Of a stretch of DNA of 64,000 nucleotides, positions 1 through 64,000 are shown in pieces. The notes beneath the pieces were generated by a model that saw only the letters and a list, made by a program, of their open reading frames with translations, had not been told where the DNA came from and made no database searches. This DNA comes from Antedon mediterranea. Lineage: Eukaryota; Animalia; Echinodermata. Location: positions 19,610,871 through 19,674,870 of the forward strand of contig NC_092676.1 in NCBI RefSeq assembly GCF_964355755.1, given 5' to 3'. Numbering within the stretch: position 1 is the first letter of the stretch; the number at the start of each line of letters is the position of its first letter. The position numbers were made by a program, and so were the translations under genes.

Positions 1-1841
1 TAGGTAGGCTATCTATCTGTCTGCACTTTTATTTTTAATGAAGTTTATATTGTTTACAGTTGAATCATTTTGTGTATTCAAGTAGTATGTCAATTTATGC
101 TAGCTTCTTCTATAAATTATGTAATATATATATATATATATTATTAATAATAATATATTATATATGTAAATAGTTTTAAAAAGTCTCCGAAATTGTGGGT
201 TGGGGGTACATTAAACTTTAACAATTTGTTTATTTGGCATTCAATTAAATAAATACTCGATGGAAAAACAATACACAATGAAAAAGTCCTCTTAATCATA
301 TACACCAAATGTTTTTCATAAAGTATATAAAAATGAATATTTTATGAAAAAGCTAAAAAAAAAACATTTTTGTTAGATAAATATTACAACCTGTATTGTT
401 ACAAACATGTGAATTTATAATAAAAAAAAAAAGGGTAGGTTTCAAATTATTTTTAAAAAGCGGGATTATGAGAGATTATGTTTCATTAAAAAGACAGACA
501 TATGTAGTCTGTCCATGGAATAATAATAATTACTCCATGGTCTTACTGGGTGTCTCTGGTAACACCATATTCAATAGTAAACAATAGACAATTGAGGGTT
601 AGACACATATTCAAATGCAGTTCAAGGAAACATGGATTGAATTGAATCCTAGAGAGAAAAAAAACATAATTTTGCTTTTTTCCAAATAAGGTTGTTTTAA
701 CGCTTTTCTCTCTGTCCGACCTTGTCTGGTATCTGTCACTAACATTGCGTCTGTCGGGAATTTAATTTCGTTTAATCTTTTCAATCACTTCATCTTCCTA
801 AAGTCTTTTATTCTATGATCCCTTTGTTTCAGTATTTTAACTTTCACTTTGTATGATTTATAATATAGTCACATATTGACTATACTTCACATTTATTTAA
901 ATAGATATATTTTTATTGTCTGAATCAAAATTTAAAATCTTTTTCACTTAAAGTTAAATAATAATTTAAAAACTTTCATTTGTGGCCCTTTAATATATTA
1001 CCTTGAACTATGGTGTTAGTATAAGTATAGGTTGTACTAAGGTAATTAAATTATTGTATATGTATTTGAAAGTCATCAATATGTATAGGCAAACTATTTT
1101 GACCTTTTGCTGGTGTCCTGACCTCAGTAATTGAGTGACCAATTAAATGTTTTACCTTGTGTGTTATTAAGCCACTGTGGCCTTTTTTTCTCTTGTAGAA
1201 CAAGGTTTTGGACTTGGCTCAAAACCCTTGATGACTGATGTGATTTTAAATGCTATACTATCCATGCTGTGGATAGACTACAACTTTTCATGAATATTCA
1301 TATAAATGGGAGGAGTTATCACATTGCTATGGGTCTATCTGAGACATTGATTTCAATAATTTAATTATTTTACTTTATATTTCAGATATGAACGAGTAAT
1401 TATGTAAATATTTACAGTTTTGCTGTGATAATATTCATAAATCATAATTGATTTTTTCATTTTTAAATTATAAATTTATATTCATAAAAGAAATAATATA
1501 TGTTTATAAATATTTATTATGAAAACATTTTATTTTGATACAATATAATTAATTATAGCAATGTACTACGTACGTATTATTATAACAAAGACACATGAGG
1601 GATTTTTGTACCATTTATAGTATTAACGTTGAACTTCCGTGTTTTAATCATACGAATAATATGACTGTAGTTAAACAATTCAATTCTTTGAAAATTTAGT
1701 ATGTTGAAGGCTTCTTACTTTTTAGGGGAATTTTGTCTTTAGTCATGTATTATGCAAAAGACCTGTCAATCTTCATAGTCACCGCCTACCCATGCTAGTC
1801 AGCCAACAAGAATGCCTTTTGTAATCAACTTCCTCTGCTTA

Positions 1842-1911
1842 ATTTGCATAATATATTCAAGGTCGTCTGCTCTATGAGGTCATGCATGTCACCTAGTGCT
1901 AGCTTATAAAA
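1842..1911 (+). promoter_or_regulatory. Candidate TATA promoter with octamer, NR5A/ERR site and nuclear-receptor half-site
   Basis: ATTTGCAT at 1842-1849, TCAAGGTCG at 1857-1865, TGAGGTCA at 1875-1882 and TATAAAA at 1905-1911, all within 70 bp and about 370 bp upstream of the ATG at 2285. Confidence 0.55.
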
Positions 1912-2284
1912 CTGCGGATGATAAGGTTTGACTACAAAGTAGCAAGGACGCATTGGTTATTGAACAGTGTGTAGTGTGCTCTCTCATAGATATCATCATT
2001 ATACCGGTGAACATAGATGACAGTTGATTGCAATAGGAGTCGTTGGCCTTTTAACACAATCAATACATATTGAGGGAGCTCTAGGCACACACTATCTTCT
2101 GAAGGCAAATAGGAAAAACCTAATAGGCATTTTATACATTGGTGGATCTTGACACTTTTGGAAAATCTTTCTGCAAATTATAATTGGTGGTGAACCTTGA
2201 TTTGTTGTGGAGGAGTTTGTTCGTAAGAGCAATTATTTTGTGAGTGGTCTTTTCAGGTCCACGGAGAACATTTAAAATAGCAGA

Positions 2285-2575
2285 ATGTCTGCAGCTACAG
2301 CCGAAAAGGGGCCTATTCACATGTCTGTGGTACAGTTTCACAGATCGTCTAAGTTAGAAAAACAACTAAGAGCGACGGAAATTTACAAAATTCATGGAAC
2401 ATGTCAATGTCCAAAAATCGACTCTAAAAGTACAATTCTGTACCGATTACTAACAGACACTTATTTTAACTCAAACTCTTGTTGTCGGAGCGGTTGTGGA
2501 TTTTGCTCATCCGCCGCAGAGAGTAAATTAAAACTTTTACTAGAAGAGTCAAAGAAACATCACCTTTTGCAATAA
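2285..2575 (+). CDS. 96-aa Cys/LxxLL-containing ORF resembling the N-terminus and NR boxes of NR0B (SHP/DAX1)
   Basis: True ATG with A at -3. GTCQCPKIDSKSTILYRLLT resembles SHP GACPCQGAASRPAILYALLS, and SKLKLLLEES resembles SHP SILKKILLEEP (recalled sequences). Ends at TAA 2573-2575 and is followed by a candidate donor CAA|GTAGGT at 2614. Confidence 0.55.
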   Translation: MSAATAEKGPIHMSVVQFHRSSKLEKQLRATEIYKIHGTCQCPKIDSKSTILYRLLTDTYFNSNSCCRSGCGFCSSAAESKLKLLLEESKKHHLLQ

Positions 2576-4809
2576 TTTATGGTACTTTCTTTTTAAAGCA
2601 GTCACTATGTCAAGTAGGTATAATAAATTATACATTTTTTTTTTATTCATTCATACAACCAAAATTAGAACATGGCGTTTTCTGTTTCTCACTTTAAGCC
2701 CATGACGTGTCACACTCGCTTTCCAGAGGCAAACATTATAAAACTATTTCTTAATTTGTAGGTACAGATACAGATCTTAAATGAGCTTGTAGTTTCCATA
2801 GCTAAAGCTTCTGTTCACTATTCCTCTACTTTAAATATCATTTTCTATTCCTATTTTGTTTGTTACAATTTTTATTTAGCAATTTCCTATAACATTTTGT
2901 ACATTAATTTTTTTGTGGACAATACAGCAGATTGTGAATGTTTTAGTTTAAGAAAAAAAACCGTTATTATTATATCCCTGACTTTGGTAATTAAATACTG
3001 TATTAACAACAATTATGAAACTCAATTTAAATTGCAAATTTCAAATCTCGCCTTCTTTTACATCATCAACAGAAACCTGTTGATTTTGATATTTTCCCAT
3101 TGATATTGTGATTGGAAAGTTCAGAAATAACATGAAAGAAAATTGTCTACAACAAGATTTAATGAATCAAAATATATGGCTTTGTTTAACAGTGAATGCT
3201 AGTTACACATACTATTAAATATACAATATGAACCATTAAATTTAATACTATAAATGCATATAAATATTTATGATCTGATGTATACCGTATTATTAATTTA
3301 TTTATTATTAAGATGTAAATTTTAGAAAACCATCTTATAAATCTGGCAGGATTCCACTGTAATACGTGACTGACTTTGCATAGACACTCTTTTATATAAC
3401 AGTAACACTTACTGTAGCTGTATAACGATATCTATTGTATATATGATTGTACAAATAAATACATTCTATTGTAAGTTATTCTCTAGAATATATACTGCAC
3501 TGTAATCCTGCCATTATCAGTACAATTAAAGTATTTAAAGAGATTTCCCATAAATAGATATCTCACTTATTCAATCCACAATAGTGGATTATATTATGGT
3601 GCTAATTCCTGGACAATACTTCAGTTTTGTTCCTGATTCCGGTTGGAAATTACTACAGACAAAGGCTCCAGCCTTCATCTGTGGAAGAATAGGAAGGGTG
3701 AATGTCCTCGCTAAAGCAGGGTCATAGCCCTATAGGCGGTAGCAGTAGGATCCAGATTCCCTAGCCTACAAAGCTCAATGTCACACCTCATTGACCAAGT
3801 TATTGTGCATTGGATAGCACGCTTTTAAATTAACTCGTCGCTTTCATTAATTAATGTTATAAAAATTGTTACTGTGTAATTTTCACTAAGCATCAATCCT
3901 GCAATTTTGTGTTGTATCTAGATGCGAGAATTTGAAAAAAAGTGCGGTTATGTAAAACAAGTTTTGCAAATTTATTTTCAAATATTAACGTATTTAGTTT
4001 AGATATCCGTGATGCGTTAATAAATTGTGTGGCCTTCATCATAAGAAATGCTGATCGATTTGTGCTGTATGTATAACGCCCGTTAATAACAAGGGCCTTG
4101 AACCAAACTCATTTAATGGCAGCAAGAATTAGTTTTCGCTTTTATGATTCTGTCAGCATAGTGATGGCAAGTTAATGTTGTTTTTACACGGCCTTGGTTA
4201 AATTACAGTCGGCCTTCAATTTGCTTTGTTGGGGGAAAATTGTTTGACAAAAATTTTGAATAAGAAGTTCAGTGATTGGATAAATTTTGTATATAGTACT
4301 AGTTATATAACTACTATTAATAACTAATGATGATGTTTTTAAATCAAGTTGATTTCATTTTTATTTCATCATCATATACCTGTATATATAATTATATCGA
4401 TTTAGAGTGAAAGGTGTAAATATTATTGTTTACTTAAAATAAATGATAGCTCAGTATCAATTTCAACTTTGAAATAGATTTGAATTTTATTTTCAGTATG
4501 ACAAATAGTGTATGGAAAAGTTTATATAACATAAAAATGATTGCAACTTTACAGTATCTGTTTCGGGGTACACACACTAAATACTTCATTAATGGTTTTT
4601 GTACACTATACTATTTCACTCACTACCATAAATGGTTTTTGTTTCAGCAACAATATTTCCACATGTCTATTTGCAGCACTCACTTGCAATTTCTAATACT
4701 AAAGTTATTGTTATCTTGTATATTCGATATACAGTTACTTTGTTATAAAATTACAATAATTATTTGGTATCTTTAACTAACCAATAAATGTATTACTTTT
4801 GTCTTATAG

Positions 4810-5048
4810 ATGTACCAGGCTTGGAAAATCCCCTGTTGGTTGAAAGATTGCAAAGCAGTGTTCAGCTTCATCTGAATGAATATGTAGCTGCCAAACATCC
4901 ATATGATCAGCTTCGCTTTGCAAGAATCCTCCTTAGTCTGCCACCGCTACGAAACATAAAAGCTCAAGTAGTTACGCAGTTGTTCTTCCGTGACATGATA
5001 GGCAACGTTGCTATGGAGGACTTGTTATCACAGATGTTACAAGGGTAG
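4810..5048 (+). CDS. NR0B: Terminal coding exon of an NR0B (DAX1/SHP)-like orphan nuclear receptor, LBD helices 9-12
   Basis: Acceptor ttatag at 4804-4809, phase 1. Encodes (D)VPGLENPLLVERLQ...RFARILLSLPPLR...QLFFRDMIGNVAMEDLLSQMLQG*. DVPGL, LFFRxxIG and the helix-12 pattern match NR0B best, and the intron lies at the FNP|DVPGL position of vertebrate NR0B genes. NR2E/NR2F identity is not fully excluded. Confidence 0.8.
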
Positions 5049-5298
5049 AAGAATATCAGCAGCATCAATTATCTGATGATGTTAACAGTCACTCTTTACT
5101 AGTTATCAGAACTTGTTGCAGATATTATATGAGTAAAAGATGGATACGATGTCTTCACGCTTTACTGGTGATCAGCATCAACAATCAGGTCACTCTTTAC
5201 TTGTTATCTTTCTTTTGCTGATGCTACAACATTAGAAGATGGAAGTGATGACTTTACTGGTGATTAACATCAACTATCTGGTGATGTCAACTGAGTAG

Positions 5299-5372
5299 AC
5301 ACATGGTCTTTGTGTCAACCAACCAAATACGAAGCCTTGATCTCTTGCTTGGTTGGCATAAAGACAATGTGT
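5299..5372 (+). other. Stem-loop in the presumed NR0B 3' UTR
   Basis: Arms 5299-5326 and 5345-5372 form a 28-bp stem with 2 G:U pairs and 2 mismatches around an 18-nt loop. Confidence 0.6.
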
Positions 5373-6171
5373 AATGTTTTATTACAGTCATTGATTTGTT
5401 TAAAATCTACATTGTTTAAATTATTTTATAATGTGTTATGTATGTTAAAAAATCTTGACTTGTTCTTAACTGAGAAATAATCCAATGGTGGATTCTCTTG
5501 TCCTGGTATTTTAACAGAAAAGGAAAATACTTTCCAACTTTAGGATTAATATTTATAAATGTACAAAGAAAGAATTGCTTGATTTACCTTTAACACCCTC
5601 CTTTGAGGATGCAAACAAAATTAAATAAAACAAATCTTGTGTTAAACCATTAAACAAGAGAAAAATTTTAGGTAAAAAAATCAGTTTTAATATTGATCGT
5701 TACTTTCTTGTTTTTGTACATAGCTATTACAAGATGAGTTCGAGTTGTATAAAAATAAAGTAAATATTTAATTGTTTGTTTATTTTATTTGTCTCTTATT
5801 GTTTTCTCTGCAGTAGAATTAAATTTGGAAAAATAGAAAACTGCATGAGATTTTTTAAGTCAAGCACCTTTGTTGAATGTTTACGTATAATTTGCTCCAA
5901 GAGAATTTTGCATGCTTTTTTAGAGTTTATTGTGTGATTTTGGGATATTCTAAGAGAGTAACATTTTATTATACATTTCCAATTAGTTCTGTGTTAATTT
6001 ATTATTATATAAAATGGGAAAATACAAATTGGTATCTGAAATGGATAACAAAGGTGAATAATAATACATCTATTTTTTGACTTGGAACACTTTGCAGATA
6101 TTGGCTTACTTAACTTGCTAAAGATTACAAGGGTTTATTTCGCATTAAAATTATGTATGTGAATAATATAA

Positions 6172-6176
<5 letters not shown>

Positions 6177-6209
<33 letters not shown>
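6177..6209. repeat. (TA)n microsatellite
   Basis: Perfect TA run; shorter or similar runs at about 125-141 and 13929-13956. Confidence 0.95.
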
Positions 6210-6212
<3 letters not shown>

Positions 6213-9200
6213 GTATAACAACAAAACCAGAACTATTATTTTATACCCAATGTGATCTGACCCAAAAAATACATGTATTTTTAATCAATGAAAGGGGTTA
6301 CAATTTAAATCTTAATATTAAAGCTAGTAGATAAATATGATATTGTATTACTGTATTTAATTTATTATTTGTATAGAAGTGTTTGTTCTTCTACTGACTA
6401 TATTGTTGTGGAATAAACTTCACCAGCACTGAAATATGTAAAACCTACTGAAATACGTATGATGGATAAAAGTTTTTAAGCTAGAATTATTTGAAAAATG
6501 TCACAATAAATGTCGATTAAAAAAGCAATTTTGTTGAAGACCTATAACTATGCTTACGTACTTCAGGTGTAAGGTAGTCTTACATTGTCGTCTAGCAGAA
6601 AAACTCATTAATAATAAATAAAAATGTCATAATTATATGTTTATTCACTTCCAAACAATTTAATACTTGCAAATTAACATTTTAAAAATATTACAGATCT
6701 TAATTTGATCGATACACAAATTTTTGTGAATCAACCAATCGTTTGATATATACAATTCTAATTTTATTTTTCTGAATTTAGACAAAATTGTGAATTTGTA
6801 ACCATATCAAAATCAATTTAAAAGGTTACTGCTAAACTAAGCAATCTGTGAATAATTTGGTGGAGGTGAAACAAACTTTTGATATTGTTTGTTCACAAAC
6901 CAATATTTTCAATGCCAACAAGCTCTAAAATTAGCCAAAATCAATTGTAATTAATCCACTGAGCCCTAGTTTGTTTATTTGCCTTTGACTTACAAATTGC
7001 AGTCATTAAAAAATGAAACTATAGGATTGTAGCCGAAATACGGTAATCATTTTAGTGTCCATTGTAAAATCCATACAGTTGGCTTAAAAGTGCTTAATAA
7101 AAAACTGGTTTTACCTGATTTGTATCGATTACTATAATAAATTCACCTTTAAATATTATTCCATCATTCCACTACAATTGTTTCTTAACTGTTTAAACGT
7201 TGCTTTACTAAATTTAAACTCATCTGAAATCACAAGTGACAGAAAACCTTTGGTAAAAGGGCAATTTCTGGAAAACAATCCAGTACAGTTGAAATATTTA
7301 AAAAAAGAATTTTGTCTGAATGGTATTCAGCATAATTAAATTGTGTAAATCTTTTGAGTGCTTAATAAAGGTAAACTAAGGTTTAGAACATTATCAATGT
7401 GTAATTACAAATACAAAGTAATATTCAGAAACACTTTCAAAGAATACATGTATCCTGATCATAATGTAACATTTATTTTTTAATCTTTCAAATCGTTTTA
7501 TTAAGTGAATCCCTTTATAATTTATTTTTAAAGTACTCTTTTAAACTTAAAGACTTTTCGTTACAATCAAGAAATGACCGTGCATAATAACAATCATAAT
7601 CTATTGATTGACAAATTATGCGAAAACGAAGAGTGTTTTTAGTGTGAATGTCGACTGAATTCAATCTAAGATTCATTTTAATCGATTTTGATCTGTTTGA
7701 CGAATGTTATTATTTTTTTAAAGTCTTTAAGTTTAAATGAGTACTCTATTGCTATTGACAGCTGTTCTGTTTTTGTTGTGTGTGTTATATTTATATTAAG
7801 CAAAACTAGCTTGGTGTGTCGTTTTATTTCTGTGCAGTTAATTTAATCCGTAGGTATACCCGTCTTGTTTATTGTGTTACTATACTTTGAGAGTTGTGAA
7901 ATGCGTAGGCGAACTGTAAAAAAAGTTGTATAAAGTATTGGCTGGCCCAGATCAAGATTTGGGTGATTTATTCTGTGCATTATATAATATAGAAAAATTG
8001 AGAATCTTATTTCGTGAGTAAATGAGATGAGAGAAAAAATACATATTAAAGTTGTATAGAACATCTTTTATTTGAGAGAAATAAACAAATCATAGACACA
8101 AAAGTGTACTTGTTCTAGAAATTTATTTTCAAAGTTTGCGTCAAAGGTGATGTTGATGATTCGTAACGTACTGTACTACAATAACGACTGACTTGGACGT
8201 TGTCAAAATCACCGGGCGATTTATTTTGTTGCACTATTTAATAATGGAACGATCCATTTGATGATCTACCATAAGTAGAATGAAACTAGAAAACTCAGAT
8301 CTTGTTATCCGATTTCTAGATATTCTAGAGACACTTTTGTTCCCGGAAGTTGTCCTCTAATAGTGGTTCTACTGTATTATGTAATATTAACGCATAGTAC
8401 AAATATATATTTTGGTTTACCAGATCTTGGTTTCACCAGAATAGACTAGACTGATTACCGGTTACAGTAAGTCTAGGCCTACATCAATCGAATATAAACC
8501 ATTCTTCTTAATAATAGACCAATAGATATATAGATACAGCACCCTAATCAGATCAATTAAGTATCTCATCCATGAGACAGAAAATGATCCATAAAAATCA
8601 TAATTGCGGTTCTGGGTAATGACAATTTACATCACTAAACATCATACACGGTTCACTCATGGAGGTATCTCAATGGTCCACTGCAACACATGCGGTCTCC
8701 GTAGAAACATTATATTTAACATTACTCTAACAGTGGACAGTAACATGATTAATCAATGTACGGTAACACCAAGAGGTCCACGAAACTGTATACCAACAAA
8801 TACATGGCCATAGGTTCGTGTATTATTAAATAATACACGAACATATGATGTGACAACGGTCACGCGACGTCACACGACACGTCACTTGCCGTTAATGTCC
8901 AACGCTACACCTAACCACGTGTTTCATAATGGCATCATGCCAGTGTGTAATCAAAATAGGAACACTATAAAAGACAAGGCTAAAAACGTTTAATCAGTTT
9001 CTATAATTTAATAATTAGCATTGAGCATGCCATTAAATCAAAATATGATGTGAATCTACAGATACGCTTACAGTAGTATTTAAAATTATTTAACAATCGT
9101 TGTATTGCCAAACCAGTGTTATTTTATTCCTGAAATAATTTTCTAGTTAATCGACCACCTGTACGAATATTTCCTTACATCATTTGCATAATATGCTTGT

Positions 9201-28359: not shown

Positions 28360-31300
28360 GTATGTGTATTTATGTAAAAACGTGTGTAGGAGGCCTCCTC
28401 TAGCTAGCCTGATAGGCTAGCTAGGCCTAGCTCTAGGTAGGCTCTAGGATAGGCCTAGCTAGCTAGGCCTAGAGAGTAGGCCTACTACTAGGCTAGCCAG
28501 GCCCTCTATAGACTATAGAGGCCTAACTAGGCCCGCCTACCTTATCCAGCGTAGCTAGGCCATGCTAGGCTAAGTTAGACTAGGCTAGCCGCTCTACTAC
28601 TACTAGTAGTAGGCCTAGCTAGGCCCTCTAGCTAGGTAGTTATTAGGGCGCTAGTTCCGTTTCGCACCTGTCATTTATTTCGACTCAAAATTTGTTTAGT
28701 AACTTTATCGTGAGTACCACACCTTAGAATTAGGCCTCAAAAATACTTTTACGAAGGAGATCACACAAAAAGTAACAAATAAATCCTTTAAATTGATGAA
28801 TTTACAGACGTGTTTCTCGCACATCTGTTCGTGAATTTCGCATACGCCATGTTCAATGTTGTTGTGTCTATGGAGCGCCAAAAAAGCAATAATAATAGAG
28901 GGACGAAAACTCAATATAATGCGTATATTTAATGCATTTATTGGTGAAAATTACGTTCAATTTTAATATATTTTGTCAATGTCAATGCAACAAAAATGTT
29001 ACTGTTGATACTGTACATGGTTTTCGCAGTTTTCGTTAACCTTACTGTACTGTACTCTTAGTCTTAGAGGCCTAGGCTAGGTAGTGATGCTGATTTAGGC
29101 CTAGAGTTTTGTTGCATTGAAATTGACAAAATATATTAAAATTGAACGTAATTTTCACAAAAAAAGGCATTAAATATACGCATTATATTGAGTTTTCAGC
29201 TCTCTATTATGATTGCTCTTTTGGCGCTCCATAGAAACAACAACATTGAACGCGAAATTCACGAACCGATTGCGAGAAACACGTCTGTAAATTCATCAAT
29301 TTAAAGGATTTATTTGTTACTTTTTGTGTGATCTTCTTCGTAAAAGTATTTTTGAGGCCTAATTCTAAGGTGTGGTACTCACGATAAAGTTACTAAACAA
29401 ATTTTGAGTTGAAATAAATGACAGGTGCGAAACGGAACTAGCGCCGTTATTAGGGTAGCCTAGCTAGCTAGGCATAGGCCTATCCTATTTACACAGTAGA
29501 TGGAAAGTAGGATTAAGCTAGAGAGGCCTCGGCGCATACTAAAATGGGTGCTAACTAATGCACTTTCGCACCACAATCTCTCGAGCTTACCCAATTTAAA
29601 AATATTCACCTGCTGAGCCTGAGTGGTGGTGATGGTGAGTGACCGCGAAGTCTTTAAATGCCCATTGAAACTGCAGTATTGCCAAAAATGCTGTAAGGTA
29701 GTAACGCCGAGGCCTCTAAATAGTCCCCAGAAATAAGCAGTAGATACTACTAATGCACTTGTCAATTGTATGACCCACTATACGACCCCCGGGAGAAATG
29801 CGTCATTTGTCCGATGTGCGTCATACTTTTGAATACCATGACGCACCCGTGCGTCAAAAAGGTGACTTACCTTTAGGTAACCATGACGCACCCATTTTGA
29901 CGCACTGTGACCATGTTGTTTATGATATGGTGGGTGGTAAAGTGACGGACATTGACACACCTTGTTCATTGATGTGACGTACCATCTAGGTTTTTTGACG
30001 CACCCCTGCGTCAGTAATTATTTGTAAATGACGCACCCATGACGCACCTCTCCCGGGGGTTGTATAGTGAGTCATACAATTGACAAGTGCATAAGGCCTA
30101 GTCTACTACTGTACTTGTAGGATATTATACTTTAGTTTATAATATTAATAATTAGTTTGGACAATTACAACTGATGATGCTAATGCAGTGATGGATTTAA
30201 TAGTAAATTAATTAAATTTTAAAAATAATTATATTGTTTTTTGGCTAAACAAATTCTCTGTTTCTAAGAAATTATAAATACTACTTTACAACTTATATAT
30301 ACTAGGCCATCTAATTTGTTAATATAATAATTAATAGCTATGGTATAATAATTTTAGTTATATCATGTATCATGTGACCAAGTGTAGATTAAATATTTTC
30401 GACTGTTGAGCAAATTAATATTAAAGCAGATAGTAATATCGAACATTTATAAAGTGCTCTTTGCCGGAGTCTCACGGTGCAACATGAAAAGAATATACTA
30501 TTGAAATAGGTGAGTTTTTGGGAGCGATTTGAATTGAAAAGGGGATGGAGTGTAACAGAGAAAATGGTAAATTTAGACAAAAATAATATTTACTATTTGT
30601 CGATAAATGATGTCAACTTGTAGAGTGCGCCATCTGTAACTTCTATACAAAATATAAAACTCGAGCGCTGCCATTCATGAAGTAGTCAAGCGTCCTTCAA
30701 CATTGGAAGACTGAAGAGACAGAAAAAAATTGAATAAAAACTTTAATACTTTAGAACTGCAAAATGTTAAAATGTAAACAAAAAACAACTATTCTTTGCA
30801 TTTAAATAAGTTTAGTTTCAGCATTGATACACTAGAAAAATGACTAAAAGGCCTGCAGTTTTATTCAATTCAATTCAAATTTATTCACCTCCCTTAGGAG
30901 AAACATATTAAAACTGTACAGCAAAATAGGACACATCAAAATGAAAATTCACATGAATCAAAATATTAAAATGGTTTAACAAGTTAAATAAAGTGTCAAA
31001 CTCTCAAAGCAATACTACTGAAGAATAGTCTTTTGTAATGTAAATTGTCGTGTCTAAATTCAATCGATCTAGGCCTACTGTAGCTAGGCATACTTAATCA
31101 TGCATATTGGGTAATAAATAAAATATTGCTATGAAAAAATCTATATTGTTTGGCTTAATAAAAAAAATAACTTTAAATTTACCATTTGTTTTTTTAATTA
31201 ATTTTAATAATAAATTCAATAAATTTTCCATGTGTTAATACCCTTCGGTTAACGTTTTTCATTAAGCTAATTTTCAGAAATAAGGTTTTTAATTTTTCGT

Positions 31301-43300: not shown

Positions 43301-46300
43301 TGCTTATTTACTGTACAAAGTAAAAATAAATGTTAAAAAGACATGTTTTGTTGAAGTATTTTTGATTAGTGAAAAAATGAATTGAAACTAAATTAAATAC
43401 ATAAACATATTTACTATTATTTACTGTTCAAAGTAAAAATAATTAAATTTGTGCTTCAGTATTGAAGAGTTTGAAATCTCAGCTTAATTAACTAATAGTT
43501 TACAATGAAGTCCATTCATACAGTATTGTGTATTGTGTCTAAAAAAAGGTTTAATGAGTGATATTGTGTACATAATGTAAGCAAGAGATATATTTATGAA
43601 TGTTCTGTTTCTTAACGAAGGTCATACATTTCTGTAAATTACGCTCTTAATAATTTGTGTTTTAATCACCTATCGACTTAGTATTCATAAAGTTCAACCT
43701 AATATAGACATAATAGTCAGCCAATCAATATAAAAAATTGTATAGTGTTAATCATTTTAATTCGCACATCTCTAAGCACATCCGATTAATTGAATAAGTA
43801 TGACTTATGACAATATAATATAATAGTATTACTTTATATCACTTTTTTAGCTTTGTATTTTATTTAAGTGTCATTTTTGTTCTTTGTGTTTTTTTTATTA
43901 AAGTTGTACATTTTTTCAAGCTTTGCCTTTGTTGTACGTCCTCCATCTTAATATTGTATTTTTGTGAATATGATATGGAAATAAAGATTGATTGTTTGAA
44001 ATATGTGTATATACTTACATAAACTATGTTTCTTAAAGGACCACTTCCATCCAGATACATTCCTTATTGCCAATATTGACTGATATAAATTTGAAGTGTG
44101 GAAGTGTTTAGGTAGAAGAGTTGGTCAAGAAAGTACCTGTCTGTGGAAGTGTTTAGGCGGCAGAGTTTGGAAAAGAAAGTACCTGTCTGTGGAAGTGTTT
44201 TAGGTGAAATAGTTTATAAAAGAAGTACTGTCTGTGAAAGTGTTTAGATGACATACAATAGTTGCTTTAACAGAAGTACAGCACCTGTATGTGGAATTGT
44301 TTAGGTGGAAAAGTGTGTAGTGGAATTGCTCTTTGTTGAAGTGTTTAGGTGGGAGAGTTGGTATGGAAGTACTGTGCCTGGAAGTGTTTAGGTGGAATAG
44401 TTTATAAAAGAAGTACTGTCTGTGGAAGTGTTTAGGTGGAAAAGTGTATATTGGAAGTGCTGTTTGTTGAAGTGTTTAGGTAGAAAAGTGTGTAGTGGAA
44501 GTTCTGTCTGTGAAAGTGTTTAGTTGGAAAAGTGTGTAGTGAAAGTGCTGTCTCTGGAAGTGTTTAGGTAGAAAAGTGTGTAGTGGAAGTACTGTTTGTC
44601 GAAGTGTTTAGGTGGAAAAATGTATAGTGGAAGTACTGTCTGTGGAAGTGTTTAGGTAGAAAAGTGTGTAGTGGAAGTACTGTTTGTCGAAGTGTTTAGG
44701 TAGAAAAGTGTGTAGTGGAAGTACTGTTTGTCGAAGTGTTTAGGTGGAAAAATGTATAGTGGAAGTACTGTCTGTGGAAGTGTTTAGGTAGAAAAGTGTG
44801 TAGTGAAAGTGCTGTCTCTGGAAATGTTAAGTTGGGAGAGTTTGTTATGACAGTACTATGTTTGAAAGTGTTTAGACAGAAGTTTAGATGGAAATCTGTG
44901 TACAGTATTTGAAGTGTAGCACATTACAGTTTTGAAGGGAAATTTTTATTTCTTTATTACCAATAAAGCGTGGTTCCCACTAGCGACGCAACACAAGAAC
45001 GTAACGCAACGCAAGTGAATTAACCAATTACAAGCGATGGCTTATTTGCTTATGATTGCTAACTGTCTATAACTTCGCTTGTCATTGGTTAAAACGCTTG
45101 CGTTGCGTTTACGTCCTTGCGTTACGTTCTAGTGGGAACCAAGCTTAACCAGTATGAGATAGAAATATCATGTCAATGGCATCTGAAATTCTACAAATCT
45201 ACAAAGATGTTGTTGAGCTGACTCTACCTTTGCAAAATCAACAAATTTGTATCAAGCTAGGTACTGTAAAAAAATTACTAGGGTTGCTTGGCCATCATTT
45301 TTCTTAGTCTCTTAGTCATTTCATCCCATGAGCTTAAGATTGCTAACCTTTTGTTAAAGGTAATATTCTCAAAGGGGACGTTTTTACACAAATGTACATT
45401 ATATGAGTAAACGGTCAATGTGACTTTGCATCATTTGTCAGCCACTGCAACATGAATAATGTTTTTAGTTTTTTGTTAAGTTATCCAAAAATAGAAACAA
45501 AGTTCAAATAGCACACAAGTGGAACATATTTCAAACCGTTTTACATAGAGGGAACTATAACTGTGACCATGACTAATGAGAATTTCTTAATAAATCTGAT
45601 AATTAATTTCACCTAAGAGGTTATGTTTTGATCCCTGGTTTTTGTGTGTGTGTTTCTAAAATTGTTTTTTGAAAGGTTTGGTTTTCCACACAAAACAATT
45701 CATTGGTTTTTGGTTATTATCTAGGATCTTATAAACATGAATACAAAAACTATACTATAATACCAATATCAAGAATTCAATTCAATTCAAAAGACAATTT
45801 ATTTTCGTCCAACAGACAATAGATAAAAAAACAGTAATGACAGATTGGGTATATTGATAAAAAAGAATGACACTATGTTGATACCACTGTATTGATAAAC
45901 AGTAGTGAGTATATATTAATAGGTATGACTTTTTGTTTCTTATAGGATCTTCAGTCGGAGGCCGACAGAATCTGCCAGACCAACATAATAGTGTGTACCC
46001 CTGGAAGGCTACTACAGCATATGGATGAAACCCCAAATTTTGATTGTTCAAATTTAAAAGTCCTTGGTAAGACCAATTACTGCATTGTTGAAGTAGTTAT
46101 TTTCCAAAACAATTATTCATTTGAACAGCAGAATTCCACTGATATATGGTAACGTTGACAGGGAATGGATTCTACTAATCAAACCATCAGTTTTATGATT
46201 GTCATGTGACTAACATTGACCAATCAAATGCCAACATGTTATATAATCTATAATATTTAAGAGATTCTAGGAAAAATATAATGCGCACATACTCAGCCAA

Positions 46301-49300
46301 TCAAAATGTAGAGTATATTGTTTATGAGGTATATTTTCATAAAATTTTAGTCATAATTCAACATTAACAATAAATTACCCACATGCATTTATTACAGATA
46401 AAACACTTGTTTTATACAAGTGTACCAGAACATTTTGCAGAAAGTTGTGCATTCATTCATGGAATGAATATATTAATTTGTATGTTTACTTTAAAAATCA
46501 GCAAATTATTTTAAAGGTTTTTTGGTAACTTTTAGAGCATATACATTATAAGAATATGTTTTTAATTAAATAATCAATTAAAAGTAGTATTGTAGTCTCA
46601 ATATAATATAATCAAAATACTGTACAAATTCATATAGATTTACTTTGTTTACAACATAAAATTCGTAATGAATGAAATTAGTTTCCCTCATTTGTGCCCT
46701 TGTATTCGATGCTTGATAACAATGAAATTTGTCTTAATTACTACTTTCTTTATCGCTACAGATATTTATAATTATAAAGCTTTTGTCATTTCAGTTCTCG
46801 ATGAGGCTGATCGAATTCTTGACCTTGGATTTGAGAAAACCATGAATGCAATTATAGAGAACATACCTAACGAACGACAGACAATGTTGTTCTCAGCCAC
46901 ACAAACTAAGTACGAGTTGCCTAATTGCACGAAAATAATTTGTTTCTTAATTCAGGATCAAAATAATATACATAGCTACGCTCGCGCTAAGGTCAAATTT
47001 TCGTTCGCCAAAGTGGCGAAAGGTTTTGAAAAACATTAGCCAAATTGAAAATCCTTTAGCCAAATTTAAAAAACCATAAAAATTCGCAAAAATGTTTATT
47101 AAATAAATAATGCATGTATTTGTTTGTTATTTTACTTCTTTTACATTTATATTATTATTAGGTATCCCAATGAAGCTGATTTTCGTTACCGCGATTTTAA
47201 CACGTTCGTGAAATTTCAAAAAGTGACGTGTCTTTGAAGTTAAAAATATACTATTTCTTATGTACCCATGAGAATAAAAATTATATGCCTGGAAAGATCT
47301 TGTTTAAGGGATTATTTTTATATATTTTTAATCTATGTTTATTAAATATTTTAATAGAAAACGCGAGTTAAAAATGAGGTACAAAAGCCGGCGAGCCGAA
47401 ATCTGCGCGCTAAAAATAACTTTGGAAAACACCTACCCATTTTCGCACCCGATCGCACGAGGTCCTTAATAGGTGGTGGAGTAATTTTTGTTGCATGTTA
47501 TCAGGCTTTAAATACTCTTTATTTTGATATGGAAATCGGTTATTATTATTATGTACATCCGCCTCATATGTCAATTTTAACGATAAAAATTCAATTTTTG
47601 AGTCTTTCTCATTATCAAAATCTGGCTAATTTAGTATTGAATTAAAGCTAATTTATATTTCTGTTTGATAAACCACATCGTTTTATTTGACTTTGCGTGG
47701 ACCTGGTGCGAAGAAACCAACAAGACCAACCACTGAAAAAAATAATCCCTACCATAAATATCAGTGTTTACCATTTTCCTTACGGGGGATTCAGTTCTCC
47801 GCTTATTACTAAATTACCGTCGCCCAGGCAATGTGCATGGTATGCATGTATTAGCGCGTTAATTAATGATTGGATAACCCCCGCAGTGGACTGTTCCATT
47901 TTCTGAACTAGTCTTCGCCGCACACGAGGCATGTCGAAAAATGTCGCCTCTCATCATAGAATATTTGCTTCGAAACGTCAACTTTACCGATTTATTAAAT
48001 TATTTAATAAGTGGAATATTTATCAATCTATTATATAAAACAAGTACGTTAGGAAGAAATGTACCGCAGAAATTTAAGAAGCTTTGAATTTGCTATGCAG
48101 CGGCCGTAACCCATTCTATGGGCCGAAACGCGCTTTGGCCAGGGTTGCCGTTGTAGTATACGTTGTTTCTTAGCTATTCAATTTAAAGCGCAACTTTCGG
48201 TTAGAATAATCAAAATGGAAATAAAATTAAACATGTTAACATTATACTATTGAGGTAAATACTTTGTTAAATTTAAAATTCCCCTTTTTAAATAACAGAA
48301 CAGCCTCGTTTACGGAAGTATTCGTCCACATGTTTCTGTTTACATTTTCTTCTTGAAGTTCATTTTCTACGTCGAAGAATAGGGACTTCCCCTTTATTCG
48401 CTCATCATCACGTCGACGACGACCGGCCACGAACCAATCACATTAACTGTGTGTCATTAAAACGTCATCGAGGCACGCTCTGCGCATGTTTAAACAGAAC
48501 TAAAAAAATGAACACGGCGATCGTGACGTCGTCACATAAAATGCTGTGGTGGTAAAAAGTGTACCCGAGTCAGAAAGTACTGAAGTGTGGCGAATTCTCG
48601 CTCCCATAGAAGTCACGCCGACCAGGCTAGGCCTAGGCTTTGAAATGTATTTTCGCCAATTTGGCGAACGAGGCAATAATTATTTTCGCCAAATGGAGAC
48701 TCCAGTCGCCATTGGCGAATTGGCGAGCGGTTAGCGCGAGCGTAGCATAGCATATCAAATGATTTTATGAATTAAGGATTTTAAATAATACATTCTTGCA
48801 TTTCATGTTTAAAAATGGAGAAAAGAGAAATATCTGTAATGTGTTTGCATAGAACATAGTTAAAGCTGATTTGAATCAAATCCCAGTTACAACTGAATAG
48901 TGCCTGTGTTATCCGTTGACTCTCTAAACCTTTTAACTAATATCTCATACTTAAATAATAATCTGTTACATTAATTTTTTTATATTTGTAGATCTGTACG
49001 TGATCTTGCCAGGCTTAGCTTGACAGACCCAAAGTTTATTTCAGTGCATCATCACCATGAATTCAGCACTCCAGTACAGTTAGAACAGGTATGCCATTCA
49101 AATTTTATGACAAAATCAAGAACATGTGGTAATCTGTCTTTCCTTTCTTATTTTCTTTGCTTCAGACTGTTGGTGCCAAACATCATATCTCCTCCTCTGT
49201 ATACAGGCTTTCGCACAGTTTGAGAGACTTGAGATTGTCCATTCACTTTGATTCAGACTGTTTGTGCCCAACATCGTAAACCTTCTCCTCTGTATACAGC

Positions 49301-52300
49301 CTTTCGCACACAGTTTGTGAGACTTGAGATGGCACATTTCCTTTGTTTCAGACTGTTTGTGCCCAAAATCGAAAACCTTCTCCTCTGTGTACAGGCTTCT
49401 GCACATAGTTTGTTAGAATTGAGATGACTCATTTTCTTTGCTTCAGACTTTTGTTACCCAATATCATAAACCTTCTCCTCTGTGTACAGGCTTCTGCACA
49501 CAGCTTGAGAAACTTAAGATGGCCCATTCTCTTTGTTTCAGACTGGTGGTGCCCAATATCATATCACCACCTCTGTGTACAGACTTCTGCACACAGCTTG
49601 TGATACTTGAGATGTTTGTTTCAGAGTGTTGGTGCCCAACATCATAAACCTTCTCCTCTGTATAGGCTTCTGCACATAGTTTGTGCGACTTGAGATGGCT
49701 CATTCTCTTTGCTTCATTCAAACTTTTGTTGCCCAACGTCATAAACCTTCTCTGAGCACAGGTTTTTAATTTGAATTTGACATGAAATTGTCCTTTCTCC
49801 TTCTGGTTGTTAATTCCCAACATCACGAATCCCCCTGTTTAGGAATCTGTATACAGCTATCTGCCAATTATTTCATTGCTTCTTGTTTTCCTCAATCCTA
49901 TCTCTACTTGTCCTTCACAAAGGATAAAACCATTTTTATGTTCCTTCTCAATATGAGGAAGGACATGTACAGGATGCTAATGACGTTAATAAGGACAAAT
50001 GATAATTGTTGCAATGCTGATTATGTTGTAGGGTTTCAGTAATTAGTCCTCTCGGATGTTGTTCCCATTGGGATGCGACACAATAATATCAAAACACAGA
50101 GTGCATAAATACGGCCTTGCTCATTACTAGTGAAGTTGCTGTCTTAAAATGGGAATTGTGGCTTTCTTTATGCAAGACGCAACGCTGCAAATTGTGTTTA
50201 CAGTAACCTTTTTGGTGCAGAAGGTGTTGCGTTGCCATGAAGTAGGCTATCTAGTGGGAACCATGTTTAAGGGATTGGCTGTGTTAAAATCATATTTCTT
50301 TTATGTCATTGTAAGGTGTTCCTCTTTATGTAGGTGTAACATTTATTTAAGGGTTCTCTTTTATGAATTCTTCTGAGAGTTGAAGGGAGCTGGGTGTGTT
50401 TTTCTATAATAATATTTAGTAAACTATTTGAGTTCCAACAGTGTCACATTATATCTGTTTATTGTTTCATTTGACTGATCATGTGAAAGAATGTATACAT
50501 TTATTCATTCATTACATACAATTTCATAATTAAACATCTATTTATAGATATTCAGGGTCACATTTAGTAGTGTGAAGAAGCACCTTTTCACATGATGATT
50601 GAGAGAACGGCATAGTGCTCAGTAAAATTGCAAAGTTGAAAAAACAAAATCATTGGAATACTTTACTTCCACTTCGTAGCAGTAAAAATGATTACATAAT
50701 TGTTAGTAAGGTTATATAACTAGAGAATCTAAATGATGATTTATTCATGGTGAGATTCTTCATTAATTCTATGCTATCTCCATATTCCAATATACTATTC
50801 TACCATTGAATATATATTCATCAATTACAATCTGTTCAATATCGAGCGTAAACTAAGTTGTTCGTGGGTGCCATGTAGCCTTTTTGTCTCTCAAACCAAG
50901 GCTAGAAATAAAGACGCAATATTAACATTGATGTTTAAATAGAAGTCTTAATATACTCGGAGTTGAACGTCCTACTACTTGAGTAACATTACTCTGAACT
51001 TAGCCTTTAATAGTTCATGGACACCGCAGTGATCAATAATAACTTTGCTTCTATCCAATAATAAACCATGTGCAACAATTACTTTATACGACCTTGATTG
51101 TAAGACATTTAATAAATGACTGATAACATTGTTAAATACTCGCTTGAGCAATATGTTCATTTTTTTTGCATTTCATTCTCGTGTAGATTCCACTATGGAG
51201 AAAGATTGAAAATTTTGAATAAAACTATTCAGATTTTGTTTTCATAAATTATGCTATTAAACTAAAGTGTTGTTTTGAGTGTAGGAAATTTTTACCATAT
51301 TTGGTTCGAATTTTTTAACATCATCAGTCAAATTAACAAGCACTTTTTATAGAAGTACCTCTGGAACACCCATATTATGGGGATACTATGTTTTAACACT
51401 GTAGCTAAACTCTATTCAGGGGACACCCCTATTAAGGGAAAACTTTCCTTGGAAACAGACTAGAGGGAAATATGTTTTAATACTACGTCTTAACTCTATT
51501 CAGGGGACACACCTATTAAGGGAAAACTTTCCTTGGAAACGGACGAGAGGCAAAATATGTTTTAATACTACGGCTAAACTCTATTCAGAGGACAACTCTA
51601 TTCAGAGGACACCTCTATTAAGAGAAAACTTTCCTGGAAAACAGACGAGAATCAAAATATGTTTTAATACTACCGCTAAACTCTATTCAGGGGACAACCT
51701 ATTAAGGGAAAACTTTCCTGGAAAACAGACGAGAATCAGAATATGTTTTAATACTACGGCTAAACTCTATTCAGGGGACACCCCTATTAAGGAAAAACTT
51801 TCCTTGGAAACGGACGAGAGGCAAAATATGTTTTGATACTACGGCTAAACTCTATTCAGGGGACACCCCTATTAAGAGAAAACTTTCCTGAAAAACAGAC
51901 GAGAATCAAAATATGTTTTAATACTACGGCTAAACTCTATTCAGAGGACACACCTATTAAGGGAAAACTCTCCTGGGAAACAGACGAAAATCAAAATATG
52001 TTTTAATACTACGGCTAAACTCTATTCAGAGGACACCCCTATTAAGGGAAAAATTTCCTGGGAAACAGACGAGAATCAAAATATGTTTTAATACTACGGC
52101 TAAACTCTATTCAGAGGACACACCTATTAAGGGAAAACTTTCCTGGGAAACAGACGAGAATCAAAATATGTTTTAATACTACGGCTAAACTCTATTCAGA
52201 GGACACCCCTATTATTAGGGAAAACTTTCCTTGGAAACGGACGAGAATCAAAATATGTTTTAATACTACGGCTAAACTCTATTCAGAGGACACCCCTATT

Positions 52301-55300
52301 AGGGAAAACTTTCCTTGGAAACGGACGAGAATCAAAATATGTTTTAATACTACGGCTAAACTCTATTCAGGGGACATCCTATTTAGGGAAAACTTTCCTG
52401 GAAAACAGACGAGAATCAAAATATGTTTTAATACTACGGCTAAACTCTATTCAGGGGACACACCTATTAAGGGAAAACTTTCCTGGAAAACAGACGAGAA
52501 TCAAAATATGTTTTGGGTCGTCCCCTTGATAGGGGTTCTACTATATGTACGCATCCTGGTATTTATTCTCGTACAAGATACGTATTATAATAGAGTATGC
52601 AGAGTTGTATTCACCACTTATTATCCATTGGTATGTTTGAATTTGTAAGCAGAGCAAAAAAATTCAAAAAGTTAGGTTTCCAAAATTTGCATATGAAAGT
52701 AGTTGTTTATTCAAACAATGTTTACATTTTCATCACTAACTAAAAACAGAGAATGAGTGAGATTACATCATTGCTTTTAAATTGATCACGATCTTGTAAA
52801 CATGTTCGTCAATGAACGAATCCATAGTAAGTTGAGGATGAGTTCAACAACAGATGCGGATTAGGAGACAATCATGCGTGTACAAAGCGCTTAATTAGTC
52901 GTCTTCCGGTAATCGTAAGAGTACAAAAACATCAAGATTAATACTTACTTCCTGACAACAAATTAATCCTTTTTTTAAAAAAGCATTTAAAACCGAAAAA
53001 AATATATATTTATCATCTTGAAATTTTGAATGTTAACTTATTGCTTAAATTTAAATTTCATAAAAGAATGTAAAAAAATAAAAAAATATTCCTACACCTG
53101 TGCTTTTCCTCAGCCTTATATTATTATAATTGAGAAATACAAGGCTCAGAATTCGATAATGTAATAATAAAATAATTAAATGAATAAATAATAACGTAAA
53201 TTAATGACCTAGTCGACTGAGTAATATACGTATAATGGAGCCAATTGTAATACTTGATGTCAATATGATGACACTTCATATTCTAATTTTATCAGGGAAA
53301 CAATTTCTACTTATTTTTTTTACCAGAGTTTTTTTTTCCAATGAAATTTGTTGATTATTGAAATGTAATCTGTATAACCTTCGATCATAATCTAATAATC
53401 CAAAAAGTATAAGGCCTATTTAGTTGTACGCGATGTCAACATATATTAAAGATTATAGAGTGTTCTCAAAATGTGTGAAACGTGTATTTGTATCTACAAT
53501 TGCTACTCTATCATTGCCAAATTCTGTGATAAAGTGTCACATGTGAGACCAGCAACATTTACAAAACTTGTTTTTTCTTAGCAAGATAATGTTAAAACAT
53601 TAAAGCTGATAAAATACATTTAAAATACAAATAAAGTACAGACAGTACTAATAAAAATTACATTTAAAGTACTTTGAAAAAATATATATAAAAAAATATT
53701 ATAAATTGATTGACTATATATGACACTGATGAAGGGCTAGTGTTGCCCGAAAACTCTGCTAATTTTTCTGGCTGTTTTACTTTATCATTTGATCTAGCTT
53801 TTTGCTTATTTTATTTTGTAGTATCTCCATTGAGATCCAGTCACTGATACCCATAGCATTGTCATTTTGCCTTTAAATTTATAAAATACTATATATATTT
53901 AAATTAATTGTAAAAACATTTTGCGCCCAGCACCATTAAAGCTTGGGGTGTCTTATATTAAGCTTGGTTCCCACTAGAACGTAACGCAAGGACGTAAACG
54001 CAACGCAAGCGTTTTAACCAATGACAAGCAAAGTTATAGACAGTTAGCAATCACAGGCGAATAAGCCATCGCTTGTGATTGGTCAATTCACTTGCGTTGC
54101 GTTACGTCCTTGTGTTGCGTCGTTAGTGGAAACCACGCTTACAAATCCTTACATGTGAATAATTTCTATGACCGGTTATTGACATGATATTATAATTTTT
54201 AATGATACAAAAGTATGTTTATTGAATCTCAAAGACCAATACAATGAACAGCCTGCGTTTAAAAGCCTATTTATATATTTGAAATAAAAATGAATGCAAT
54301 TTCCTACCTACAGCCATAGGCTGATATAAATAGCGTTATAAGAAATTAACAAAGGAAAATGATCTTTGCAGTTGCTACTAGTGAATAGATTAGTATTTCA
54401 AAATATATATGTAGTTGGTTGAATAATTGGTATATTATGTTTTCTGAGAAACATCTTTCAATGAATGAATGAAAATATTTTCTCCATTTTGTATTAAATG
54501 CCTACTGTTAGTAAACTAAATATTATTTAAATTCAAATAAATAGCTGTTTCCATTTGAATCGAAAAAGTCCAAGACTCGTGCAAACATTTTTCACTCAGA
54601 TTTTAGCAGTAGGAGCAGATACAGTTGGGTTTTCCCATCATGCAATATTCTGGCCAACTGTATTGCATCAATTTCAACTTGAGTTGTTGAGATGTTATGT
54701 TGTATGTCACATGATTCAAAATCAACCAATCAAATGACAGGAAGGTGTATTTGAATTTTTCACTTCTATTAAACTGTTCCTGAACTTGGTAAACTTTGTA
54801 TTGGAAAATCATGCATTTTAAAGATTTTTATGTAAACTTTTAGACATTATATTTTAAACATGTGGTTATGTGGTAAATGCTGTCTGGATATCTTAGTGAA
54901 ATAATCCCTGTCAAAATTTGTTACATTTTTTATAAGCTCAATCGGATATTCAGTTTCATGACCTTAAAAAATGTTCCTCTATCCTCCTTGTGACTAGGAC
55001 AATGAACGACATGACTTTGCTGGAAAATGAATTCAATTTCCTGCAATTTAAGCAAAATTATAAATGTGGTTTATCATAATATCTCTATGGATTTATCAAC
55101 AGTGAATAAATTATGTTTTGTCTTTCGTTTAATGGTAGTTAGTTTAATTTAGAGGAAATACAAACTATATTGTATACTGATGTGATTAGATTAAAGATGG
55201 CTATTAAAGATAAGTGAAAATTACAGTAAGTATACGTTTATTCATGATAAGTTACAATAAAGCTGATATCAATATGCTAAAGCTATACAGTACAAAATAA

Positions 55301-63959: not shown

Positions 63960-64000
63960 GTACAGTACAATACAAATGTTTTCTTTAATTGCTTTATAAA

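Follow-up and report, generated by a model that had tools for sequence, protein, structure and literature searches.

The window studied here (the whole stretch of 64,000 nucleotides of Antedon mediterranea DNA) contains a short open reading frame with two LxxLL motifs, upstream of an exon that resembles the end of an NR0B receptor gene. This raises the question whether the frame encodes a protein in its own right, a part of the receptor, or the remains of a damaged first exon. An earlier note on this DNA had described a closed 96-aa ORF with two LxxLL boxes, Cys clusters and a TATA promoter. All of these were found in place: the ORF occupies 2285–2575, its LxxLL boxes lie at residues 52–56 and 82–86, the Cys motifs CQC and CCRSGCGFC are present, and a TATA box precedes it. 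Starting at an alternative in-frame ATG at 2321, the product would be 84 aa long. Two LxxLL motifs alone are weak evidence and no rarity: of the 47 ATG ORFs in the window with 60 aa or more, 2 carry at least two. What bears the case is RNA together with conservation.

The transcript and its host gene

Five runs cover the region, none of them recorded as RNA, and four of these (X1, X2, X3, and X5) were compared over 1850–5400. X2, X3, and X5 come from one sample, and X2 (share 0.99) may be the source of the window; X1 differs from the three in both sample and study. In X1, a single contig of 2020 nt begins at 1953, reaches 2613 and resumes at 4810, skipping 2196 nt bounded by GT..AG. X1 was taken as RNA because it has this GT..AG-spliced contig; the assignment is a guess. 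The RNA support for the transcript is this one run, in the form of assembled contigs only. The joint 2613→4810 is not listed in X2, X3, and X5, whose contigs span the intron. The earlier note had predicted both transcription of 1935–2613 and a splice from 2613 to 4810, and the X1 contig, which covers 1953–2613, displays both. The resulting features are as follows.

1953–2613, plus strand: internal first exon, transcribed part (letters 1–661 of X1 contig 1; start position approximate)
2017–2073, plus strand: upstream ORF of 18 codons in the 5′ leader (from the sequence)
2285–2575, plus strand: ORF of the 96-aa NR-box microprotein (ATG 2285, TAA 2575; compared with relatives)
2523–2528, plus strand: candidate phase-1 donor GTAAAT (from the sequence; no joint listed)
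2607–2613, plus strand: ATG put in frame with the LBD exon by the splice (possible 81-aa second ORF; probably chance)
2614–4809, plus strand: intron, GT..AG, 2196 nt (joint 2613→4810 in run X1)
4810–5048, plus strand: NR0B terminal exon, coding part, LBD C-terminus (Pfam; identity to XP_071956321.1)
5049–6167, plus strand: shared 3′ UTR (observed to 5400; end inferred from the size of the X1 contig; ATTAAA at 6144)

The stop codon of the microprotein lies 38 nt upstream of the 2613|2614 junction, as had been noted before. A stop within about 50 nt of the last junction spares an mRNA from junction-dependent NMD. The stop of the microprotein mRNA is placed where such decay would be escaped, and since it precedes the 2613→4810 splice, the LBD exon becomes 3′ UTR in this mRNA. 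If the X1 contig is collinear throughout, it would terminate near 6167, about 20 nt past the ATTAAA at 6144. The contig is unbroken through 4810, with no loose end from the canonical exon 1. This hints that the microprotein mRNA is dominant in the X1 library, a hint given no weight since contigs lose rare variants. No substitution or indel is listed within 2285–2575 in any of the four runs (two samples). The last exon has one listed variant in its coding part, at position 5039, and this is synonymous.

The earlier assignment of the downstream exon to an NR0B-type gene held. Exon 4810–5048 matches the C-terminus of a nuclear-receptor LBD (Pfam PF00104, E 3.6e-6) and is 100% identical to residues 198–276 of P0007 (XP_071956321.1, NR0B1-like, from Antedon mediterranea). 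The best PDB matches of P0007 are DAX1 (3f5c, 1e-32) and SHP (4nuf, 6e-27); the host gene has an LBD nearest, among solved structures, to these two receptors, and no DBD. The exon is intact and is 96% identical to the NR0B of Anneissia japonica and 65% to those of two sea cucumbers, and on this ground it appears still to be coding in another transcript. Exon 4810–5048 has a double role: it codes in full-length NR0B and is 3′ UTR in the microprotein mRNA.

Residues 1–197 of P0007 comprise its own NR box and LBD helices 3–8. They found no credible match in the 64-kb window (the sole other match, E 2.4, contains a stop), so the H3–H8 exon of NR0B apparently falls outside it. The earlier note had seen no exon for helices 4–8 between 2575 and 4810, and the whole window gave no credible match to one. 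These residues are distinct from the 96-aa frame, which is therefore not NR0B exon 1. The Anneissia protein P0006 tracks full-length NR0B up to ILFNP and then departs from it, and this point of divergence fits a phase-1 intron where 4810 begins. The canonical exon 1 would lie more than 4.8 kb to the left, which would place the 96-codon ORF within an NR0B intron. The ORF is likely a second first exon inside this intron rather than a broken exon 1.

Relatives and conserved motifs

Protein searches yielded P0001 (1 of 77 candidates) and P0015–P0017 (3 of 44 candidates), and a cluster look-up added P0018–P0020 to the family. A profile search of 1.84 billion representatives returned five matches, namely three proteins already found, P0021, and the plant protein P0022. 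The last (E 4e-9) was dropped as a false match summed from eight repeat stretches. The relatives total eight (P0001, P0015–P0021) in five clusters, all of them unnamed or ‘hypothetical’ proteins, and we would guess that they are echinoderm in origin. The exact 96-aa protein of the window is absent from the protein collection searched.

A nine-sequence alignment (A5) has 30 invariant columns, including C40, C42, P43, I51–T57, S80–K83, L85–E87, and K90. Both LxxLL boxes are kept in all nine sequences, and all eight relatives terminate 4–9 residues past box 2; the conservation of frame, boxes and stop position implied by the earlier note is thus seen across the five clusters. The only relative with DNA is P0001; its frame lies on L001, a genomic contig (1 of 189 candidate stretches), and a stop codon is visible after it. 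This contig ends 13 nt past the stop, and no relative is tied to an NR0B locus. The long N-terminus given for P0001 was set aside as a gene-call artefact in which two stops are read as W, and that of P0021 is probably an artefact too. A dN/dS-type check, also raised before, was made on 31 box codons of the window and L001, which are alignable cores whose choice favors conservation: 14 are unchanged, 14 have a synonymous difference and 3 a non-synonymous one. The differences at codon positions 1, 2, and 3 number 6, 2, and 11. As far as this pair of sequences goes, the codon changes show selection on the protein. No relative fused to an LBD was found among proteins of 169–2000 aa (weak evidence) or among the 1.84 billion representatives.

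2312–2326, plus strand: PIHMS, opposite the relatives’ CtBP-type motif PLNL[S/A/V]; degenerate (alignment A5)
2402–2455, plus strand: CxCP and NR box 1, residues 40–57, LYRLL (hhalign to the NR0B N-terminal box; predicted helix 48–57)
2519–2557, plus strand: NR box 2, residues 79–91, LKLLL (invariant residues in 9 of 9 sequences; predicted helix 81–94)

Box 1 was aligned with the N-terminal boxes of four echinoderm NR0Bs by hhalign with a probability of 86% (E 4.8e-6, 26 columns). Between L001 and a sea-cucumber NR0B, 16 of 28 residues are identical, the CxCP spacing and SK.SILY included. Box 2 found no match in the profile of the four echinoderm NR0Bs (hhalign). The likeness of both boxes to those of SHP, proposed in the earlier note, stands for box 1 as a match to the NR0B N-terminal box; box 2 is similar in composition to SILKKILLEE of human SHP, as given in part of PMC13012086, but one residue shorter. 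A further near-box, SKLEKQL, turned out to be no NR box; by eye it corresponds to the relatives’ basic segment SK[TSL]KAK, the MAFFT registers being shifted here. When the nine sequences were submitted to AlphaFold, the protein was predicted at low confidence (mean pLDDT 54.7) to be mostly disordered, and the only helices of at least four residues were 48–57 and 81–94, i.e., the two boxes.

Neither the ORF nor any of the eight aligned members matched the LBD family PF00104, and the ORF had no zinc-finger DBD match in Pfam or PDB. The searches of these two collections gave only weak chance matches for the ORF and none for the family profile. Rfam had no match to positions 1–7000 of the window, and none of 144 candidate stretches from viral contigs was related to the microprotein. 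Because an LBD is absent, the 96-aa protein is, on the evidence of these comparisons, placed outside the NR0B family. The term microProtein denotes a small protein that works only by interaction and is kin to a portion of a larger regulator. The family has these properties, with core frames of 96–141 aa and a box 1 related to NR0B.

The CtBP-type motif and the promoter cassette described below do not figure in the earlier note. PLNL[S/A/V] is found near the N-terminus of all eight relatives, a finding that is new here for the family. The window's PIHMS aligns with it in alignment A5 and is placed otherwise in A3. PIHMS fails the PxDLS-like pattern, and the relatives pass it; for this reason CtBP recruitment seems likelier for the family than for the window's own copy. 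The P[I/L/M]DLS-type motif is absent from the echinoderm full-length NR0Bs P0002–P0012. PLNLS is described as the CtBP-binding motif of ZNF750, Senseless and Hairless in the relevant parts of PMC4173152 and PMC6777938.

Promoter elements, proposed mechanism and alternatives

Upstream of the ORF, four elements stand in the same order in the window and in L001.

1842–1849, plus strand: octamer-type motif ATTTGCAT, first element of the cassette (also at L001:282, same order)
1857–1865, plus strand: TCAAGGTCG element (CCAAGGTTG at L001:299)
1877–1882, plus strand: AGGTCA nuclear-receptor half-site (also at L001:330)
1905–1911, plus strand: TATA box TATAAAA (TATAACA at L001:353; the X1 contig starts at 1953)

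We take ATTTGCAT at 1842–1849 to be a POU-type octamer site, and TCAAGGTCG at 1857–1865 is presumably an NR5A/ERR-type extended half-site. The order ATTTGCAT, YCAAGGTYG, AGGTCA, TATA is found at a single place in the window and at a single place in L001, and of the window's 261 TATAA[AC] sites, 1 is preceded by all three elements within 100 nt, for a pattern that was picked after inspection of both sequences. When the two upstream regions are aligned locally, the best result (1834–1874 in the window) falls on the cassette; the likeness is modest, with 3 of the 154 control segments scoring equally high. The conservation of the cassette is suggestive. A global alignment of the two promoters put the TATA boxes out of register.

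As the best explanation of the whole, we consider it probable that a spliced intronic transcript gives rise to an NR-box corepressor microprotein with neither DBD nor LBD. The TATA-containing region, likely in an NR0B intron, would drive the spliced transcript that carries the conserved 96-codon frame, and translation of this frame would yield a mostly disordered peptide. Its two LxxLL helices are predicted to fill the coactivator groove (AF-2) of other nuclear receptors and to dampen them, SHP being reported to act through LxxLL-like motifs on AF-2 (PMC3346990, in part). The peptide would outcompete coactivators on NR5A/ERR-type receptors; competitive inhibition of nuclear receptors was already the earlier note's suggestion. 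Since LxxLL boxes serve coactivators too, we infer the sign of the effect. Relatives with PLNL[S/A/V] would also recruit CtBP, and in the crinoid, PIHMS may be a site that has weakened or been lost.

Full-length NR0B would be made from an upstream promoter and an exon 1 left of the window, so that one locus may give two different repressors with a common last exon. The peptide may have arisen via duplication of the NR0B N-terminal module of CxC and NR box. The promoter elements TCAAGGTYG and AGGTCA could close an SHP-like negative-feedback loop. Feedback loops of SHP with LRH-1 and ERR are covered in a section of PMC3346990, and binding of the Dax1 promoter by Nr5a2 and Esrrb in a section of PMC5423462. 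A wider proposal is put forward tentatively, as possible but somewhat doubtful: the echinoderm NR0B locus may be a two-protein repressor cassette, whose second product, next to the DBD-less receptor, would be a nuclear-receptor derivative stripped of DBD and LBD alike. This CtBP/NR-groove adaptor of about 100 aa would have its own NR-responsive intronic promoter, be conserved but absent from the annotations searched, and represent a freestanding form of the CtBP plus NR-box module that is fused to the LBD in spiralian NR0Bs.

Other readings of the same data were weighed. The peptide might target NR0B itself or act as a decoy, binding the NR0B LBD or titrating CtBP and so relieving repression. 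It shares its locus with NR0B, its box 1 resembles NR0B's own box, the CtBP motif of the crinoid copy is degenerate, and LxxLL/AF-2 dimerization of DAX1 and SHP has been reported (PMC3346990, in part). We nevertheless hold this unlikely, since a repressor-recruiting motif kept beside the boxes in all eight relatives is a better fit to a repressor adaptor, and the NR elements in the promoter suit feedback repression. Quite unlikely, too, is an independent NR-coregulator gene, not derived from NR0B, which borrowed the last exon of NR0B as its 3′ UTR in this lineage only. The match to NR0B extends over only 26 columns, nothing in echinoderm NR0Bs corresponds to box 2 or to the PLNL motif, and the relatives are not placed on any locus; yet the match takes in the CxCP spacing and SK.SILY at the 16/28 identity given above, and it lies in the very gene that encloses the ORF.

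It is very unlikely that the product is a mini-receptor containing an LBD, whether by a fusion of about 158 aa via donor 2523, by a +1 shift into the frame that is open from 2544 on, or as a C-terminal LBD fragment of 81 aa that re-initiates at ATG 2607. The phase-1 donor at 2523 named in the earlier note does exist, and the codons around it are identical in L001; once the RNA is spliced, the open stretch of the LBD frame starts at 2544 and includes the ATG at 2607. The fusion of about 160 aa that was predicted from this donor is not seen: no joint from it is listed in the four runs (as contigs, from which rare variants may drop out), and 2613→4810 is the only joint listed. Of 726 donor-like sites, 106 are preceded by an in-frame ATG and 146 by 23 open codons, so the ATG at 2607 and the frameshift were discounted as what chance could give. 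The failure to find a fused relative (weak evidence for the 169–2000-aa proteins) and the common stop position of the relatives also speak against a receptor-like product.

A pseudogenized or mis-assembled NR0B exon 1, which the earlier note had allowed for and which the partial likeness to the NR0B N-terminus might suggest, is hardly credible. The named full-length NR0B has a different, intact exon 1; none of the four runs, from two samples, lists a change of frame or stop; codon changes are synonymous in 14 cases and non-synonymous in 3; and the stop position is kept across five clusters. The locus holds a putative NR-box microprotein whose frame is real, conserved and missing from annotation, and which probably lies within NR0B; a spliced intronic transcript encoding a corepressor remains our preferred account of it.

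Comparison with known systems

SHP (NR0B2), DAX1 (NR0B1) and the single invertebrate NR0B resemble the 96-aa protein in having an N-terminal CxC plus ILYxLL box and no DBD; the arrangement CxC..ILYxxL is given for vertebrate DAX1 and SHP in Dataset S9 of PMC13012086 (in part). The predicted mode of action, repression via AF-2 grooves, and the NR elements in the promoter are likewise shared. The 96-aa protein differs from NR0B in its lack of an LBD, its length of 96 aa, and its own promoter and exon. The N-terminal repeat domain of DAX1, with several Cys plus NR-box units in tandem, is again similar to it. DAX1A retains most of the LBD. This second product of an NR0B locus (NR0B1A) uses an intronic exon 2-alpha, according to part of PMC5021503. 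In DAX1A the last exon is exchanged and exon 1 retained, whereas for the microprotein it is the first exon that is exchanged, and the product has no coding sequence in common with the host receptor.

RIP140 (NRIP1) and LCoR are far larger than the 96-aa protein. Like the eight relatives, they combine LxxLL boxes with a PxDLS-type CtBP motif, whereas in the window's protein that motif is degenerate. Homology to them was not detected in Pfam, PDB or the profile search of 1.84 billion representatives (four family members and one repeat-driven plant match). By analogy, the 96-aa protein likely works like both NR0B and RIP140/LCoR, the latter two being reported to repress via LxxLL and PxDLS (PMC1693901, in part). 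The NR0Bs of Crassostrea, Mizuhopecten, Owenia and Macrostomum have long N-termini in which P[I/L/M]DLS comes before an LxxLL-like box (from the sequence to about 320 residues, in the part of PMC13012086 concerned). What sets these spiralian receptors apart from the relatives’ microproteins is fusion of the motifs to the LBD and a different motif order; with the order changed, they are a lead and not a proof of descent.

The locus also recalls microProteins, as a small interaction-only protein kin to a larger regulator, and CDKN2A INK4a/ARF, as two first exons joined to one downstream exon. In CDKN2A, two first exons are spliced to one downstream exon and give unrelated products; here, unlike there, the common exon is non-coding in the second transcript. 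The literature searched, which included few subscription journals and left supplements of echinoderm genome papers outside its scope, held no report of an NR-box microprotein in NR0B and no nuclear-receptor example from animals of a microProtein or shared-exon locus. Purifying selection appears to maintain the microprotein in several lineages, yet no record found gives it a name. For crinoid NR0B there is a practical side as well: any RNA-seq count, probe or knock-down directed at its last exon would confound two different products. In textbooks the minimal nuclear receptors are SHP and DAX1, which are without a DBD and still have an LBD; this locus appears to go further, to a protein made of NR boxes only. 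It would offer a natural test of whether the NR boxes of NR0B function without the LBD, which bears on the evolution of the DAX1 repeat domain.

Basic segment and LBD frame of the spliced transcript

The 96-aa protein with two LxxLL boxes carries, near its start, a segment like the SK[TSL]KAK of its relatives.

2345-2374 (residues 21-30): basic segment SKLEKQL

Like its counterpart in the relatives, the segment echoes the SKLK at the start of box 2, the second LxxLL box. It may be a repeat within the protein, or it may serve as a nuclear-localisation signal.

When 2544-2613 was joined to the last NR0B exon (4810-5048), the LBD frame was open from 2544. An ATG at 2607 lies in this frame of the spliced RNA, giving a possible second ORF of 81 aa, whose occurrence is compatible with chance.

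Relative's promoter, intron and shared 3' UTR

In L001, the genomic contig encoding the relative P0001, three NR5A/ERR-like sites were located around the promoter, at 159, 299 and 360. The leader of L001 from TATA to ATG is about 790 nt, twice that of the window.

Within the intron, short contigs from run X1, taken as RNA by guess, lie between 3250 and 4748 and are not spliced; they may be pre-mRNA, DNA or a separate transcript. The shared 3' UTR holds a repeat.

5088-5282: two imperfect copies of ~100 nt, 72% alike

Other features of the 64-kb window

Besides the coding sequence of the NR0B locus, only one protein gene was recognised, a DEAD-box helicase that is presumably DDX10-like. The window also holds repeats.

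46638-63998, + strand: DEAD-box helicase exons (PF00270 at 46638-47036, PF00271 at 62191-62535)
28628-29467: inverted pair
44097-44881: tandem repeat array
49147-49761: tandem repeat array
51387-52514: tandem repeat array
44966-45146 and 53957-54141: two copies of a palindromic, MITE-like element of ~185 nt

Comparison with other NR0B proteins

Anneissia japonica has, beside a full-length NR0B model, a second one (P0006, XP_033121285.1) that comprises exon 1 only; the longest contig is of equal length for both models. This model appears to run on into the intron, and is possibly a haplotype duplicate. Among the spiralian NR0Bs of Dataset S9N in PMC13012086, PxDLS-type CtBP motifs are present in the N-termini.
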